This document shows positions 1,919 through 7,632 of a stretch of DNA of 17,496 nucleotides, piece by piece. The DNA is from Nanobdellati archaeon (GTDB lineage: Archaea > Nanobdellota > Nanobdellia > UBA10117), in NCBI GenBank assembly GCA_016182015.1, contig JACOYC010000023.1, forward strand, positions 1-17,496, read 5' to 3'. Position 1 is the stretch's first letter. Every line of letters begins with the position of its first letter. A program made the translations under genes and the position numbers. The notes beneath the pieces are model-generated. The model made no database searches. It was given only the letters and a program-made list of their open reading frames with translations, and was not told where the DNA came from.

Positions 1919-1933
1919 AAAATTTATTTTAAA

Positions 1934-1995
1934 CCAGAGAAAAGTTTAGTGAAACTTTTCTTGGCCAAGAAAATTTTTAAAGAAATTTTCTTTGG
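1934..1995 (+). repeat. Two tandem A/T-rich hairpins of similar sequence (about 31 nt each)
   Basis: AGAAAAGTTT (1938-1947) pairs with AAACTTTTCT (1952-1961). CCAAGAAAATTT (1965-1976) pairs with AAATTTTCT(T)TGG (1983-1995) with one bulged T. Both units have CCA...TGG ends. Confidence 0.5.
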
Positions 1996-2108
1996 ATTCG
2001 AAAAACCAACAACCAACAACAGAATAATCAATTACTAACGCAACCAATTACTAACAACTAATAACATAAGCATATATCAGTTACGTATTACATTGTGTAT
2101 TACAGAAA

Positions 2109-3471: not shown

Positions 3472-4720
3472 TTATACTGTTCTTCCAGACTACGCCGCCG
3501 AATTTGAGTTCGCGCGCAAATAACTTTGCATAAATTGCAGCAAGCCACCAGAGTGCGAACAGCCATGTGTAAAAAAACACATAAAGAAAATATGGCAGGT
3601 AGAGTTTTTCTTCCCTGCCAGACCTGCTCCAGCCGAAATAAAGCATTATCGCGCCGAAGATGAGAAAACAGATTGCCAGCGCAGAAACTACACCCGGAGA
3701 ATAAAACGGCAGAAGTGACAAGCTTGATTTTATGCCGGCCAAAAAATCGAAGTTGCTGGCATGAAAATTCAAAACGTTACGTATTACATCTGCCAGTATC
3801 CGCTTCGCTGAGTATGCAAACATCGCTATCGAAAAACCTATCGAGTAAAGCGCAAGCGGCAGTATAAACACGCCAAGCAGGCCATGCTCTGACGCCATAA
3901 GCCTGCGGTATTTTATTATGTTCTCGAAAAAGCCAAGATACCATCGCAGCCGCTGCCGCATTAATTGGGAAAAACCCTGCGGGGATGATGTGTAAACAAC
4001 GCCATCCGGCGCGTTTTCTATTTTCAGGTGCTGGCTTTGTATGCGCAGCGCAACTTCCATATCTTCTGTTATGTTGTCTTCGTCAAAACCGCCGGTTTTT
4101 CGGAAATAATCCAGCCTATAAATTGTCATCGGGCCAGGCGCGACATGTATGCTGCCAAGAAACGCAAAAACCTTGCGCAGGAATATGCCATAAATATATT
4201 CTAGGCTCTGTACATGCTCCCAGATGTTTTTTGGTTTGTATACCTTAAGGGCAGGCGTTACAGCGACAACTTCGGAATCAGAAAAATAGGGCAGCATATT
4301 TAGCAGCACGTTGGGTGTAGCATAAGAATCGGAATCTATCGCCCCGAAAATATCGCCAGTCGCTTTTTTAAGCGCGAAATTTACCGCCCTTCCCTTGCCG
4401 CCTTCCTTAATGCTGTAAACTATAACACCATCCTTTTCAAACGCCCTTGCGATTTTTAGTGTGCCATCGTTTGAGTTGTTGTTTTCAACAACAATTATTT
4501 CAAGCCTGCCTTTTGGGTAGTTTATGTTGAGCAGCGATTTGATTGTGTTTGCAATTGTGTCAGCGGCGTTCCAGGCCGGCACAACAATCGTGACTCTTGG
4601 GAATTTTGCCATTTTTACAGGCCTGCTGGCAGGCTCTTCTTCAAGGAAGGTCAGAACGAAAAATACAGCCGCAAACATGCCAATAAACATACCAACATAT
4701 ACGCCCAACTCGATTAACAT
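3446..4720 (-). CDS. Family-2 glycosyltransferase of the membrane-embedded processive synthase type (NodC/IcaA/chitin- or cellulose-synthase-like)
   Basis: N-terminal TM helix, then VTIVVPAWNAADTI (GT-A start), DSDS (DxD-like), ITEDMEV (TED) and QRLRWYLG (Q-x-x-R-W), followed by about four C-terminal TM helices. TATA-like ATTTAAAA at 4741-4748 lies upstream on the minus strand. Confidence 0.8.
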   Translation of the reverse strand: MLIELGVYVGMFIGMFAAVFFVLTFLEEEPASRPVKMAKFPRVTIVVPAWNAADTIANTIKSLLNINYPKGRLEIIVVENNNSNDGTLKIARAFEKDGVIVYSIKEGGKGRAVNFALKKATGDIFGAIDSDSYATPNVLLNMLPYFSDSEVVAVTPALKVYKPKNIWEHVQSLEYIYGIFLRKVFAFLGSIHVAPGPMTIYRLDYFRKTGGFDEDNITEDMEVALRIQSQHLKIENAPDGVVYTSSPQGFSQLMRQRLRWYLGFFENIIKYRRLMASEHGLLGVFILPLALYSIGFSIAMFAYSAKRILADVIRNVLNFHASNFDFLAGIKSSLSLLPFYSPGVVSALAICFLIFGAIMLYFGWSRSGREEKLYLPYFLYVFFYTWLFALWWLAAIYAKLFARELKFGGVVWKNSIINQILHRQ

Positions 4721-4789: not shown

Positions 4790-5737
4790 CTAACTAAATG
4801 TAAATACAACTCTATGCAGTACGCCAAGCGCTAGGACTACAATTATTGTAGCTATGAATGCTTGTTCAGTCATGTGTTTGAATTTTGAATTCAGCACATA
4901 TTTTTCAAGCTCGTAAAACGCAAAGCCTGCCAGGCATACAAAAGCTGTTGCTAAATACGGCAGGCCAAGCTGTAGGTTGACAAGCTGCGTTATGAATCCC
5001 AAAAAAATTGCAATCGCCGCGCTGACAAATAACAGAGCCGCTTTTTTGTCTTTTGTTATGCCAGCATACGCACCATAGAGTCCGATGTAAATTGGAAGCG
5101 AGCCCGCAAATGCAAGCACACTCTTGTAAACTTTTGGCGCGGAAGAAATTGTGAAGTAGTTTGTGTACTTGCCAAAAAGAAAAATTGCCGCAGGCGTTAT
5201 CTTGAAAAGCAAAAAAACTCCCAATATGCAGGCCGTGCTGGCCATTATAAATTTAAGCTCATCCTGTCCAACTTCCTTGTGTTTTAGTTTGATTAGTCCG
5301 ATATAAATTAAGTATGCAGGTATTAACAGAAGGCTGTAAAAATGAATGAACGCAAAAACAACTGGTACAATAAGCGCAAGCCTCCAGTCAAAGTCCTTAA
5401 CCCGCGAAAAGAAATAAAGGCTGGCGATGAAGAGCAGCACGCCCATAGTATGTGTAAGCTGCGCAGTTGTTTTCCAGGTGTAAATCTGGATTGGCACCAT
5501 TAGAGCTGCGGAGAACAGGCCGGCTTTCACACTGCCGGTAATGCGCTCTGCGGTGATAAATACAAAAATAATAACTGCGGCGCCAGCAGCTATAGAAAAA
5601 ACACCCTCCCAGAAATTTATTGCCGGCGGCGGAGATGCTATAAGCTCATAGGCGTTTAAGCCTAATGATAACGAAAGGAAGGCCAGCAGATACAGATAAT
5701 CGCGGGCAGTCCGGCTTGTGCCATTGCTTTTTTCCAT
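4790..5737 (-). CDS. Polytopic integral membrane protein of unknown function (about 9-10 TM), directly upstream of the GT2 synthase
   Basis: 315-aa ORF that is almost entirely hydrophobic helices. Palindromic TTTATAAA at 5759-5766 lies 22-29 nt upstream of the ATG. Same strand as the GT2 gene with a 69-nt gap. No diagnostic motif recognised. Confidence 0.55.
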   Translation of the reverse strand: MEKSNGTSRTARDYLYLLAFLSLSLGLNAYELIASPPPAINFWEGVFSIAAGAAVIIFVFITAERITGSVKAGLFSAALMVPIQIYTWKTTAQLTHTMGVLLFIASLYFFSRVKDFDWRLALIVPVVFAFIHFYSLLLIPAYLIYIGLIKLKHKEVGQDELKFIMASTACILGVFLLFKITPAAIFLFGKYTNYFTISSAPKVYKSVLAFAGSLPIYIGLYGAYAGITKDKKAALLFVSAAIAIFLGFITQLVNLQLGLPYLATAFVCLAGFAFYELEKYVLNSKFKHMTEQAFIATIIVVLALGVLHRVVFTFS

Positions 5738-5775
5738 TAGAAAGATGATAATTTTGGTTTTATAAATGTTTAATT

Positions 5776-5848
5776 CTAAGACCCAAGGGGGCTCTGCCCC
5801 CTTCGTTCTTAGTCACTTCCAATCCCCCGATGCCATCTGCGATGGCAT
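5776..5848 (-). terminator. Two-hairpin GC-rich module immediately 3' of truD (copy 1 of a repeated module)
   Basis: ATGCCATC (5830-5837) pairs with GATGGCAT (5841-5848), 3 nt after the truD stop. A longer imperfect hairpin spans 5776-5812 around GGGGGC/GCCCCC (5787-5801). A related module lies at 8109-8184. Confidence 0.45.
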
Positions 5849-5851
5849 AAA

Positions 5852-7099
5852 TTAACCACTCAAAACTTTTACTAATTCTGTTGCATATGCTCCCTTCGGC
5901 AGTTCAAAATTCAGTTTTAGCTTAAATTTCCCTGCGTTTAACTCATCTTTCTCAAGTTTTCCAAGTTTTAATTTCTTTGGCTTTATGATTGCGGCGCGGG
6001 CTGTCCCCTCAGACGCGAGTTCAGGCATCCGCGAACATCTGAATGAATCAAGCGTTAAGTTATCTGCGAATAATAACTTTTTAATTTCCTGCGAGAATTT
6101 ATCTTTTCCTAATTTTGTTTTGAAACCCGGAACAGCGTAGGATTTTTTCAATTTCCGAAGCGGAACTTTAAGTTTCGCGCGGCCCAGCTGAATTTTGTTC
6201 AGCTTGGGTGTTTTTGAATTTGCAACTTTCTCCAAACCAGCATTCCACAAATAACTCTGGTACGCGTGCACATACATCCTCCGCGTTGGCTTTGGAATCT
6301 TTCGCAGCGCGCCCGCGAAGTCAGTTGGGACTTGGACAAGATGTTTTAGCACGGTTGTTTCAATCCCAAGGAATTTCGGGCAAGCTTGTAGCAGTGTATC
6401 CCAACTACTAAATTTCTTCTTGGCCAGCGCCCTAAACTTGCTTGCCTCGCCATTACCAGAGCCGAGCGAAGCTCGGCGAGGCGCAGCGAAGCTTGCTTCG
6501 CTTGCGTCCTTTTCTGAGTACGTCAGAAGATAGTAAACCGCATCCTTGAAATAGCCGCGCACGATCTCCCTGCCGATTAATGCGGAGTTCCCGCCGCCGA
6601 ACCGCTGCTCGCCGAAATAATTGGGAAAGCCATCCTTATTTAATATTAAATACTGTTCTTTAATATTATTTATTTCGTTTCTGCTCAAATCCCGCAGCAC
6701 AATCTCAAACCGGTTCCCAGTCAAATCGCCGAGCGCTAATCTCTCAGTAAACCCAAGAAAATGCAAAGCATTTTCTGGGCCCAGCCGAACTTTGTTCGGC
6801 TTGGGCTTTCCAACGATCTCGATCCCAATATCCTTCAGCCGTAAATTAGACAATCTTTCCGGCGGAATCTGAAACGCAGAAACCAATTGCTTTGTAACAG
6901 CGTTCGCGTCCTTGGTGCCGGCAAAGTGAAACCGCGCAAACGAAACATTCAGCGCCTTCGCAATCGCAAGTATCGCTCGGACGGTTGTGTAGTTTCTTTT
7001 ATTTAGCCAGAAGTAAGTATGCTGGCCAGCAGCATCTGGTTTTGGCAGCTTGATTAATTCTTCAACTCTGAAATCTTCAGGAATTTGTTTTAGTTTCAT
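5852..7099 (-). CDS. truD: tRNA pseudouridine synthase, TruD/Pus7 family
   Basis: N-terminal MKLKQIPEDFRVEE and the catalytic-Asp motif FAGTKDANAVTKQ are typical of TruD. Length of 415 aa fits archaeal members. Confidence 0.88.
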   Translation of the reverse strand: MKLKQIPEDFRVEELIKLPKPDAAGQHTYFWLNKRNYTTVRAILAIAKALNVSFARFHFAGTKDANAVTKQLVSAFQIPPERLSNLRLKDIGIEIVGKPKPNKVRLGPENALHFLGFTERLALGDLTGNRFEIVLRDLSRNEINNIKEQYLILNKDGFPNYFGEQRFGGGNSALIGREIVRGYFKDAVYYLLTYSEKDASEASFAAPRRASLGSGNGEASKFRALAKKKFSSWDTLLQACPKFLGIETTVLKHLVQVPTDFAGALRKIPKPTRRMYVHAYQSYLWNAGLEKVANSKTPKLNKIQLGRAKLKVPLRKLKKSYAVPGFKTKLGKDKFSQEIKKLLFADNLTLDSFRCSRMPELASEGTARAAIIKPKKLKLGKLEKDELNAGKFKLKLNFELPKGAYATELVKVLSG

Positions 7100-7100
7100 C
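7071..7100. repeat. 30-nt direct repeat, copy A (functional truD start codon plus first 9 codons)
   Basis: AAATCTTCAGGAATTTGTTTTAGTTTCATC matches 7517-7546 at 29 of 30 positions (hand count). Confidence 0.9.
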
Positions 7101-7166
7101 TTATTTTATAATTACTACTAATAAACAAGGCGTAATGTTTATAAGCTTTAGAATGCAAATAATTCC

Positions 7167-7517
7167 ATGGAGAAGAAATATTTATTTTTGATTGTTATGG
7201 GTATGATATTATTGTTTGTACTTATGTCTACAGAAAAAGAAACAACATTTAGCGTAAACACAGTGAATAATGGATTACGCATGATTAAAGTTGATGTCAC
7301 ATTGCCGCTAAATGAAGATGAGGCATGCGAGGTAGCAAAAGCAGCAGCAACGGCATTTAGCAGTAGCCGAGAGTTTGAATGTGATGAAATTAGCAGACTG
7401 AGCAATACAGAAATTCAAGTAGCAGATGTTTCCATAGATGAAAATAATTTTGGAACAGCAACTGTGGCCAGCATAAATGAAAAAGATAGAACAATTAATT
7501 TTTACTCATCGCCATAA
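7167..7517 (+). CDS. Small orphan secreted or membrane-anchored protein (116 aa) inside an AT-rich insert
   Basis: N-terminal hydrophobic segment YLFLIVMGMILLFVLM. Own TATA-like TTTATAAG at 7138-7145, 22-29 nt upstream of the ATG. Bracketed by the 30-nt repeats. No family recognised. Confidence 0.5.
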   Translation: MEKKYLFLIVMGMILLFVLMSTEKETTFSVNTVNNGLRMIKVDVTLPLNEDEACEVAKAAATAFSSSREFECDEISRLSNTEIQVADVSIDENNFGTATVASINEKDRTINFYSSP

Positions 7518-7546
7518 AATCTTCAGGGATTTGTTTTAGTTTCATC
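7517..7546. repeat. 30-nt direct repeat, copy B (decoy truD start)
   Basis: AAATCTTCAGGGATTTGTTTTAGTTTCATC. On the minus strand it reads ATG (7545) MKLKQIPEDF and then runs into MAMSKN-stop. Confidence 0.9.
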
Positions 7547-7566
7547 ACGAGTAGTGTAATTCACGA

Positions 7567-7574
7567 ATTAAAAA
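7567..7574 (-). promoter_or_regulatory. Orphan TATA box (TTTTTAAT on the minus strand) upstream of the decoy truD start
   Basis: It lies 22-29 nt upstream of the decoy ATG at 7545. This is the same spacing seen at most genes in the window. Confidence 0.5.
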
Positions 7575-7632
7575 CTTTGCTGGCAGAAAAAACAGCTTAA
7601 CTCCAGATTTCAAAATATTAGTGTGCGTTTTG

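Follow-up and report, generated by a model that had tools for sequence, protein, structure and literature searches.

A 416-nt module with one small envelope protein gene lies between two copies of the truD start in an uncultured DPANN archaeon

The stretch of DNA analysed here (the window) spans the full 17,496 nt of the 17.5-kb contig JACOYC010000023.1 (assembly GCA_016182015.1), which comes from an uncultured DPANN archaeon. Our subject is the start of truD, the gene for the tRNA pseudouridine(13) synthase. At the extreme 5′ end of this gene, a foreign module of 416 nt is integrated, with a copy of truD nucleotides −1 to +29 on either side. The module holds a single gene, ORF116, and a bidirectional promoter region of 66 nt. 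In the annotation, ORF116 is HYT16_03565 of the metagenome-assembled genome (MAG) of a DPANN group archaeon. Archaeal marker genes surround the insertion site, namely those for EF-1beta, aS21/HVO_2753, the Sm_multidrug_ex membrane protein, and FEN-1; genes for Trm5/TYW2, a Trp/Tyr-tRNA synthetase, and an S-layer-like protein are further markers in the window. The coordinates of the features are collected in Table 1.

The proximal copy of the repeat reads AAATCTTCAGGAATTTGTTTTAGTTTCATC and the distal copy AAATCTTCAGGGATTTGTTTTAGTTTCATC. They agree at 29/30 positions, the longest exact run between them being 18 nt. On the minus strand, each copy comprises the G at −1, the ATG, codons 2 to 9, and two bases of codon 10, the encoded peptide being MKLKQIPEDF. 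The first ten residues of TruD are almost invariant among relatives, and K4, Q5, P7, E8, D9, and F10 are fully so. A previous description of this locus, made from the DNA letters without database searches (the sequence-only reading), had reported two 30-mers with one mismatch spanning the truD start. Our search bears this out, as the pair comprises the only matches window-wide at up to three mismatches, against an expectation of 0.00 in 200 shuffles. On the plus strand, the distal copy provides the final A of the ORF116 TAA stop and then a T-rich tract, TTTGTTTTAGTTT. With folding energies of 0 and −1 kcal/mol, the 30-mers are no more stable than shuffled sequences. Database searches with the 30-mer returned two matches in 185,579 GTDB representative genomes, one in the JGI metagenomes, and none in viral contigs. 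Each of the three is a single truD start, and the idea of a generic dispersed repeat is therefore rejected. Two weaker repeats of the window, D10 and D19 (7728–7760 versus 7020–7044 and 7494–7512), were judged to be chance matches.

Five relatives (here L005, L006, L007, L010, and L020) show the locus without the module. Each has a single truD start, with the 30-mer site present once against twice in the window, and neither the cassette nor ORF116. Their TruD proteins are 64–74% identical to that of the window (L010 was not scored alike). The closest relative, L005 (GCA_016204275.1), has a TruD 74% identical and a nucleotide identity of ~80% across 7.4 kb, and it is syntenic with the window from EF-1beta through the GT2 glycosyltransferase. 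In L005, the stop of the upstream gene lies 31 nt ahead of the truD ATG; in L006, L007, and L020, the upstream gene abuts the truD start, and in L010, Sm_multidrug_ex overlaps the truD ATG. These loci agree with the proposal that a cassette was inserted at the truD start with duplication of a 30-mer. The empty sites predicted for relatives thus exist as single 30-mer truD starts, all of them in other species.

The relatives also help to tell which copy of the start is the older one. Over the 40 nt that precede the distal ATG, 24/40 positions agree with the region ahead of truD in L005, and CCAG-AAAG-TTTTA stands in the same register. Among the 13 window promoters compared with this region, the distal one is the best (24/40), the next reaches 19/40, and the proximal one scores 9/40, which is the random level. 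The reciprocal comparison of window and L005 promoters gave the same outcome. Furthermore, the variable site of the 30-mer is C in the distal copy, L005, L007, and L010, and T in the functional copy. These matches support, with moderate confidence, the earlier suggestion that the distal copy represents the ancestral promoter and start of truD. The promoter match is only moderate evidence because other orthologous pairs of the window and L005 are much closer by eye (e.g., 39/40). More broadly, the identity of the window to L005 ranges from 58 to 96% per 100 nt, and the truD locus reads as a recombination mosaic.

The interval between Sm_multidrug_ex and truD is itself variable in the clade, with no gene in L010, one each in L005, L006, L007, and L020, and two in the window. 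The 110-aa gene upstream of truD is just 27% identical to the 135-aa gene of L005, and the promoter ahead of it is ~96% identical. When window 7584–7957, L005 4154–4561, and L020 752–1093 were compared, the 110-aa gene appeared by eye much closer to the 113-aa gene of L020.

The AT-richness of the insert had been noticed before, and no other stretch of the window is as AT-rich. Its GC content is 32.7%, against an overall 44.8%, and ranks within the bottom 0.35% of 416-nt windows, and ORF116 has the lowest GC at third codon positions (0.27) among all window genes. Neither a repeat search nor direct reading of its two ends (7101–7130 versus 7487–7516) found terminal inverted repeats. No gene of the window has a transposase, integrase, or recombinase domain. 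The insert shows no similarity to the rest of the window or to related loci beyond chance 11- to 13-mers, and no paralogue or source of it was found there. Known RNA families, searched over 5700–8300, gave no hit, and the only tRNA found is a tRNA-Trp at 14699–14771, far from the insertion site.

ORF116 had been called an orphan, a label that proved too strong. It has no match in Pfam or NCBIfam, and a word-indexed search returns ORF116 alone. However, an exhaustive HMMER search found four homologues at 36–43% identity (P0122–P0125, E values of 2.8e-12 to 1.5e-7), and a profile search added a fifth at 30%. The family comprises six clusters at 90% identity, so far from archaeal MAGs and metagenome contigs; one homologue has a named source, a Candidatus Aenigmarchaeota MAG. 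The motif DV[TS]xPL..[ED]AC..A..AA ... F.[ED]CD ... I.V.D follows an N-terminal transmembrane (TM) or lipobox-like segment, and ORF116 and P0122 have the C-terminus ...FYSSP in common. AlphaFold2 modelling on the family alignment (predicted local distance difference test score, 80.8) gave a TM helix followed by a beta-beta-alpha-beta4 arrangement. Because the motifs are kept across homologues of 30–43% identity and the model is of this quality, ORF116 is a real protein. Specifically, it is a rare, patchily distributed small envelope protein. Its predicted fold has no match among solved structures in the PDB. Profile and structure searches, suggested earlier for this protein, thus yielded five remote homologues and no named family or fold.

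The well-resolved loci of the homologues all differ in context (S27e/Kae1; eIF-2beta; GtrA/XerA). They have 28–40% GC, and the GC content of each homologue's gene is close to that of its own locus. Since the insert is the lowest-GC stretch of the window, its composition fits an import from a lower-GC donor. ORF116 and its family profile have no relatives in IMG/VR, where the 30-mer is also without match, and a viral origin was rejected. A recombinase gene near homologue P0126 was considered as the integrase of an element and dismissed, as it is the housekeeping XerA (254 bits versus a cutoff of 220). Gene-terminus repeats were not found around the homologues in L011, L013, L017, and L018; L016 has an intergenic motif instead.

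That motif, of 21 nt (TAAATCGCAAAACGYTAGCTT), occurs in every intergenic gap of L016, the locus of homologue P0124. Its five copies (565–588, 1033–1052, 1523–1543, 2074–2097, and 2446–2470) are spaced by ~370–550 nt and lie between five small hypothetical genes. They could be cassette-array-like sites or a common promoter/operator motif. In L018, a 77-nt repeat (4517–4593 and 4970–5046; 97% identity), apparently a promoter plus first codons, belongs to two adjacent genes. A perfect 19-nt repeat (1892–1910 and 2773–2791) lies on both sides of xerA in the same locus, and TTTCAAAAGGCTTAAA recurs in both L018 repeats.

As the organism is archaeal, TATA boxes and T-runs were surveyed by direct reading, the former upstream of 20 starts. 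A TTTWWAW-type box begins at −30 to −26 at 13/20 of them, with the decoy start (the ATG of the distal copy) counted in. Among the remaining starts, the GTG at 10956 has a box at −15; the others have none, and some abut the upstream gene. The box TTTTTAAT stands at −29 to −22 from the decoy ATG, and a BRE-like (transcription factor B recognition element) AAAG is present. The box ahead of the functional truD ATG, TTTATTAG, comes without the BRE-like AAAG. These two boxes and that of ORF116 all lie where the sequence-only reading had placed them. Its claim that the distal start now opens only a short frame also stands, as this frame meets a stop after 16 codons inside the insert.

Judged by these signals, truD presumably now uses the TATA box within the insert. 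The stranded promoter looks fully canonical; its transcript would probably be short and leaderless, stop at the T5 run, and be antisense to the last ~35 nt of ORF116. Because the T5 run, with more T-runs further along the path of this transcript, follows the decoy stop, a short antisense RNA is likelier than read-through into truD, which appears unlikely. The antisense or upstream-ORF arrangement proposed earlier is hypothetical, and the T5 run argues for early termination. The stranded 30-mer would, in turn, give ORF116 a T-rich 3′ tract.

Table 1. Features at the truD start and its upstream neighbourhood (positions in the window)
Feature	Position	Strand	Remarks
truD (415 aa), tRNA pseudouridine(13) synthase	5852..7099	-	Pfam TruD, E=7.7e-81
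Proximal 30-mer, functional truD −1 to +29	7071..7100	-	ATG 7099-7097; contiguous with full TruD ORF
Insert, 416 nt	7101..7516	.	Missing in five relatives; 32.7% GC; no terminal inverted repeats
TATA-like box TTTATTAG, inside insert	7118..7125	-	−26 to −19 from functional truD ATG
TATA-like box TTTATAAG	7138..7145	+	−29 to −22 from ORF116 ATG at 7167
ORF116, predicted N-terminal TM helix and beta-beta-alpha-beta4 domain	7167..7517	+	Two conserved cysteines
T5 run, candidate archaeal termination signal	7480..7484	-	11 nt past decoy stop; from sequence only
Decoy ORF, 16 codons, MKLKQIPEDFMAMSKN-stop	7495..7545	-	Putative remnant of ancestral truD start, entering insert
Distal 30-mer, putative stranded ancestral truD start	7517..7546	-	ATG 7545-7543
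Putative stranded ancestral truD promoter	7567..7578	-	BRE-like AAAG 7575-7578; TATA TTTTTAAT 7567-7574
110-aa gene upstream of truD	7633..7965	-	Counterpart in relatives directly precedes truD
Sm_multidrug_ex event	8003..8288	-	Functional 3′ end 8184-8288; stranded L005-like 3′ end 8003-8107

Two further events of a similar kind were found at gene ends. The nearer one lies 0.5 kb from the truD insert, where the last ~100 nt of Sm_multidrug_ex are present twice, 79% identical overall. The first 26 nt of the two copies (8082–8107 and 8263–8288) are identical at 26/26 positions, a run reminiscent of a crossover core, and the remainder agrees at 50/70. In the stranded copy, the last 33 nt and the promoter after them are nearly identical to L005. 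Since the functional end is only 79% identical to this L005-like copy, it was imported and is no duplicate. Between the copies lies an 85-nt two-hairpin 3′-flank module (8108–8192, overlapping the stop codon at 8184–8186). It is homologous to the two-hairpin module directly after the truD stop, with compensatory changes and the same fold; thus, the functional Sm_multidrug_ex end came with its own 3′ flank. The other event is in L010, where a 31-nt direct repeat (6560–6590 and 7704–7734; 30/31) derives from the 3′ end of a TP_methylase gene (diphthine-synthase-like). The repeat flanks a 1.1-kb module of two genes, which encode a protein of 130 aa and a nucleotidyltransferase of 204 aa and resemble a toxin–antitoxin pair. 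The L010 methylase now ends in ..EEEYLKQ-stop, and the native ..EEEYLGLN-stop is stranded downstream, beside the promoter of the next gene. In all three events, one repeat boundary is a gene edge, the repeats or identical cores are 26–31 nt long, and no recombinase lies inside. Over the 94 kb of loci scanned, there are 14 direct-repeat pairs (at least 18 nt, spaced by 100–2000 nt) versus ~0.25 per shuffle.

The two-hairpin module was observed at stop codons at window 5766–5851 and 8108–8192 (minus strand) and at L005 5673–5830. Its consensus is TGCNATC-GNA-GATNGCATCGGGG followed by a G/C-rich hairpin; the fold z is about −4.3, and it has no Rfam match. The module is kept in L005, there with an additional 53-nt hairpin inserted. 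It may be a terminator, a 3′-UTR (untranslated region) element, or a mini mobile element.

For the origin of the truD structure, we lean, without strong confidence, towards an attachment-site-like (att-like) or short-homology, Campbell-type integration of a module that carried its own copy of the truD start and replaced the promoter. The incoming DNA would have carried a truD-start copy joined to a different upstream flank. The imported and resident starts would have recombined over ~30 nt of identity, and the two 30-mers would act like attL and attR. The agent could have been a tyrosine recombinase acting in trans, or host homologous recombination on a small circular or excised intermediate, which is the Campbell-type case. 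A staggered cut of the transposase type would not be involved. Recombination between the 30-mers would precisely excise the module, restoring the ancestral locus. The sequence-only reading had also preferred an att-like or recombination event over a transposase target duplication, and we concur, as terminal inverted repeats, transposase, and integrase are missing from the window and the two parallel gene-end events argue for the same choice. Moreover, the repeat boundary at truD −1 is a gene edge, where truD loci with different neighbours would lose homology, and the insert supplies truD with a TATA box at working distance.

Several observations weigh against this interpretation. To our knowledge, a module of 446 nt is far below the size of any integrative element, and the recombinase that such an element would use is absent from the window. 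The native stop of ORF116 lies within 1–2 nt of the repeat, so that anyone deriving the module from a larger element by decay would have to assume a very tidy deletion. With the truD event taken alone, one difference per 30 nt fits an imported copy or a duplicate with a later mutation. The promoter match to L005 is, as stated, far below that of other orthologous pairs. No empty-site allele from the same population was found, a look-up with the 110-aa neighbour giving only three contigs, all of them cassette-bearing. For a core site, in which inverted recombinase-binding arms would enclose an overlap of 6–8 nt, the sole candidate in the truD 30-mer is a weak 5-6-5 palindrome, AAATC-CCTGAA-GATTT; the repeats of the parallel events (26 nt and 31 nt) have no counterpart of it, and a dif-like palindrome common to the three repeats was sought and not found, leaving no shared core-site signature. 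Finally, no donor with ORF116 adjoining truD was found among the homologue loci, which counts against this interpretation and against the break-repair route discussed below alike.

Other explanations differ widely in their merits. An assembly chimera or collapsed strain variation is scarcely credible. The source contig does come from a metagenome assembly, L005 co-occurs in the same groundwater project with near-identical segments, and Logan contigs break nearby. However, four independent Logan assemblies (L001–L004, from four SRR runs) cover both 30-mer copies, three of them being 100% identical to the window and L001 having one mismatch at 5949, far from the repeats. Because the longest exact run is only 18 nt, the two copies would not merge in a de Bruijn graph; the k-mer size we take to be 31 for Logan and, judging by the name of the L005 contig, presumably 141 there. 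Typical assembly k-mers are longer than either exact run (18 nt and 26 nt), which means that every junction k-mer must be read-derived. It is also highly improbable that the cassette is ancestral and that the relatives lost it by recombination between the 30-mers. Such a deletion would be easy and would leave exactly the single-copy state of the relatives, but it would have to account for the missing cassette in all five of them, the more distant ones included. The insert is moreover a compositional outlier, ORF116 homologues occur in unrelated contexts, and the origin of the repeat would still need explaining. A tandem duplication was rejected, as the insert is not homologous to adjacent resident DNA beyond chance 11- to 13-mers. 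Less remote, yet still very unlikely, is a true target-site duplication (TSD) by a transposase- or Cas1-like enzyme or by the filling in of a break with ~30-nt overhangs, in which a piece comprising promoter and gene was put in and 30 nt of the resident DNA were doubled. The 29/30 identity of the copies suits this mechanism, and the similar repeat lengths in the three events (26, 30, and 31 nt) could reflect a fixed stagger. Against it, neither terminal inverted repeats nor a transposase or casposase occur in the window, and 30 nt exceeds the 2–15 bp of known TSDs (PMC6563490). The Sm_multidrug_ex repeat extends over another 70 nt at 71% identity, where no fill-in duplicate is possible. It would also be by coincidence that the boundary falls at the gene edge and that the truD promoter is well placed.

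A serious rival to the recombination reading, though one that we hold to be unlikely, is the repair of a break at truD +29/+30 from a donor having ORF116 as the divergent neighbour of truD, by homology-facilitated illegitimate recombination (HFIR) or one-ended invasion plus end joining. Synthesis would have run from truD through the donor promoter region into ORF116 and then joined the other broken end, so that the repeat would be the stretch from the break to the end of the homology between donor and recipient. HFIR has been documented as a path that foreign DNA can take (PMC3240628), and it has also been invoked for displaced gene ends in effector arrays of type VI secretion systems (T6SS) (PMC5361080). 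Break repair explains the gene-edge boundary equally well as the recombination that we favour, and also the correctly spaced truD promoter in the insert. It accounts further for the divergent (79%), functional Sm_multidrug_ex copy with its own 3′ flank, and the mosaic of identity blocks versus L005 points to frequent inter-lineage recombination. Several points speak against it. By reading, no microhomology of the kind expected at an HFIR joint (3–12 nt) was seen at 7516/7517 or 8107/8108, truD itself being a possible anchor. A run of 26/26 at the edge of the 96-nt Sm_multidrug_ex repeat is unexpected from a donor 71% identical elsewhere. Furthermore, a junction exactly at the native stop of ORF116 would be a coincidence for an illegitimate join.

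A broader possibility, which we regard as quite unlikely, is that the DPANN archaea of this clade gain genes by recombinase-less gene-end cassettes of 0.2–1.1 kb, in a self-propagating and reversible shuttling. Such a cassette may consist of a 26- to 31-nt copy of a housekeeping gene end plus its own promoter or 3′ flank, and it may move in and out by a recombinase in trans or by the host machinery. At 5′ ends, the host promoter may be swapped and a live ancestral promoter left facing the cargo, which would amount to antisense control. The occurrence of three events in ~30 kb of two genomes (truD 5′ end, Sm_multidrug_ex 3′ end, and L010 methylase 3′ end) is compatible with this idea.

The truD gene contains smaller inserts of another kind. 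Compared with the 359-aa TruD of close relatives, the segments 6756–6809, 6456–6506, and 6155–6217 are clean in-frame insertions of 54, 51, and 63 nt. All three form hairpins, with DNA fold z values of −3.7 to −5.1, and the first and third have a 26-mer in common (CCCAGCYGAAYTTTGTTCRGCTTGGG), with a compensatory T..A / C..G change. They resemble the Rickettsia palindromic elements, which likewise sit in-frame within genes. The middle insert is also present in L020 (~1680–1730; TruD 64% identical) and missing in the closer L005, and its 3′ part, GCGCCTCGCCGAGCTTCGCTCGGCTCTGGTAAT, is identical at 33/33 positions between the window and L020. This distribution suggests a mobile or recombining mini-element. 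Other TruD proteins of the clade carry different in-frame inserts elsewhere, one of 47 aa in L010 and another in P0011.

Outside the truD region, L005 has ~900 nt (~9547–10447) with an extra gene for a 276-aa protein (9563–10393) opposite window 1924–2105. The window has a ~180-nt AT-rich intergenic region there instead, with an 82-nt imperfect palindrome at 1924–2005. The tRNA-Trp gene (CCA anticodon) stands immediately upstream of the class I Trp/Tyr-tRNA synthetase gene. It overlaps the TTG at which the synthetase ORF (13613–14722) was mechanically called to begin; the true start of this ORF is probably further downstream.

DPANN archaea have very small genomes rich in lineage-specific small membrane and secreted proteins, and the arrival of these genes is poorly documented. 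The truD locus records a full arrival, as the target and its two junctions, the promoter and start that were displaced, the new promoter, five empty sites, and remote homologues of the cargo can all be seen. The parallel events suggest that foreign DNA recurrently enters the genomes of this clade by way of short identities at gene termini. The importance of the locus would rise if gene-end cassettes were a general and reversible mechanism in DPANN archaea. Besides, the replacement of the promoter of a conserved tRNA-modification gene would, given transcript data, offer a natural experiment on archaeal leaderless promoters.

The structure can be set beside several known systems. Like the insertions of transposons, miniature inverted-repeat transposable elements, and casposons, it has a target-derived direct repeat around the insert; unlike them, it has a repeat of 30 nt instead of 2–15 bp and lacks terminal inverted repeats, a transposase, and Cas1. 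An integron cassette is likewise a compact single-ORF unit with its boundary right at the stop codon. However, the 30-mer does not fold in the manner of an attC site, the module brings its own promoter, and neither IntI nor attI is present. In the displaced “orphan” gene ends of T6SS, Rhs, and contact-dependent inhibition (CDI) systems, an imported terminus with a new flank displaces the resident terminus, which is left downstream (PMC5361080 and PMC3240628). Those systems swap toxic C-terminal domains with immunity genes, whereas the pieces displaced here are a 5′ terminus (of truD) and a 3′ terminus (of a membrane protein gene), at junctions that, as read, show no microhomology.

Cis-mobilizable elements (CIMEs) are integrase-less, cis-mobilizable derivatives of integrated elements, and She, Peng and Garrett reportedly described “gene capture” remnants in archaeal chromosomes in 2001. 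Both share with the truD cassette the att-like repeats around recombinase-less cargo and a mobility that would need a recombinase in trans. In contrast to them, the present case comes without a recognisable parent element or recombinase, and the insert does not have the look of a decayed element.

A close likeness is to gene-end integrative elements, with which the truD locus shares the gene-terminus direct repeats, the intact gene, the displaced native end, and the empty sites in relatives. Archaeal att sites measure 8–69 bp, a range that includes the 30-nt repeat, and protein-coding genes are documented targets of integration at their 3′ ends (PMC6563490); all 14 gene-targeting integrated mobile genetic elements of thaumarchaea used 3′-distal regions (PMC6563490). 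In Escherichia coli, e14/icd and Rac/ttcA, the latter at a 5′ end, are examples of surrogate gene ends (PMC6379469). The truD cassette differs from such elements in its lack of an integrase, its 416-nt size, its one cargo gene, and its position at a 5′ end, so that the promoter was replaced. Thus, the locus is the well-preserved scar of a gene acquisition. Its kind is broadly known, an integration at a gene end that displaces the terminus, and its form is unusual, as a 0.4-kb module without a recombinase has targeted the 5′ end and replaced the promoter of its host gene.

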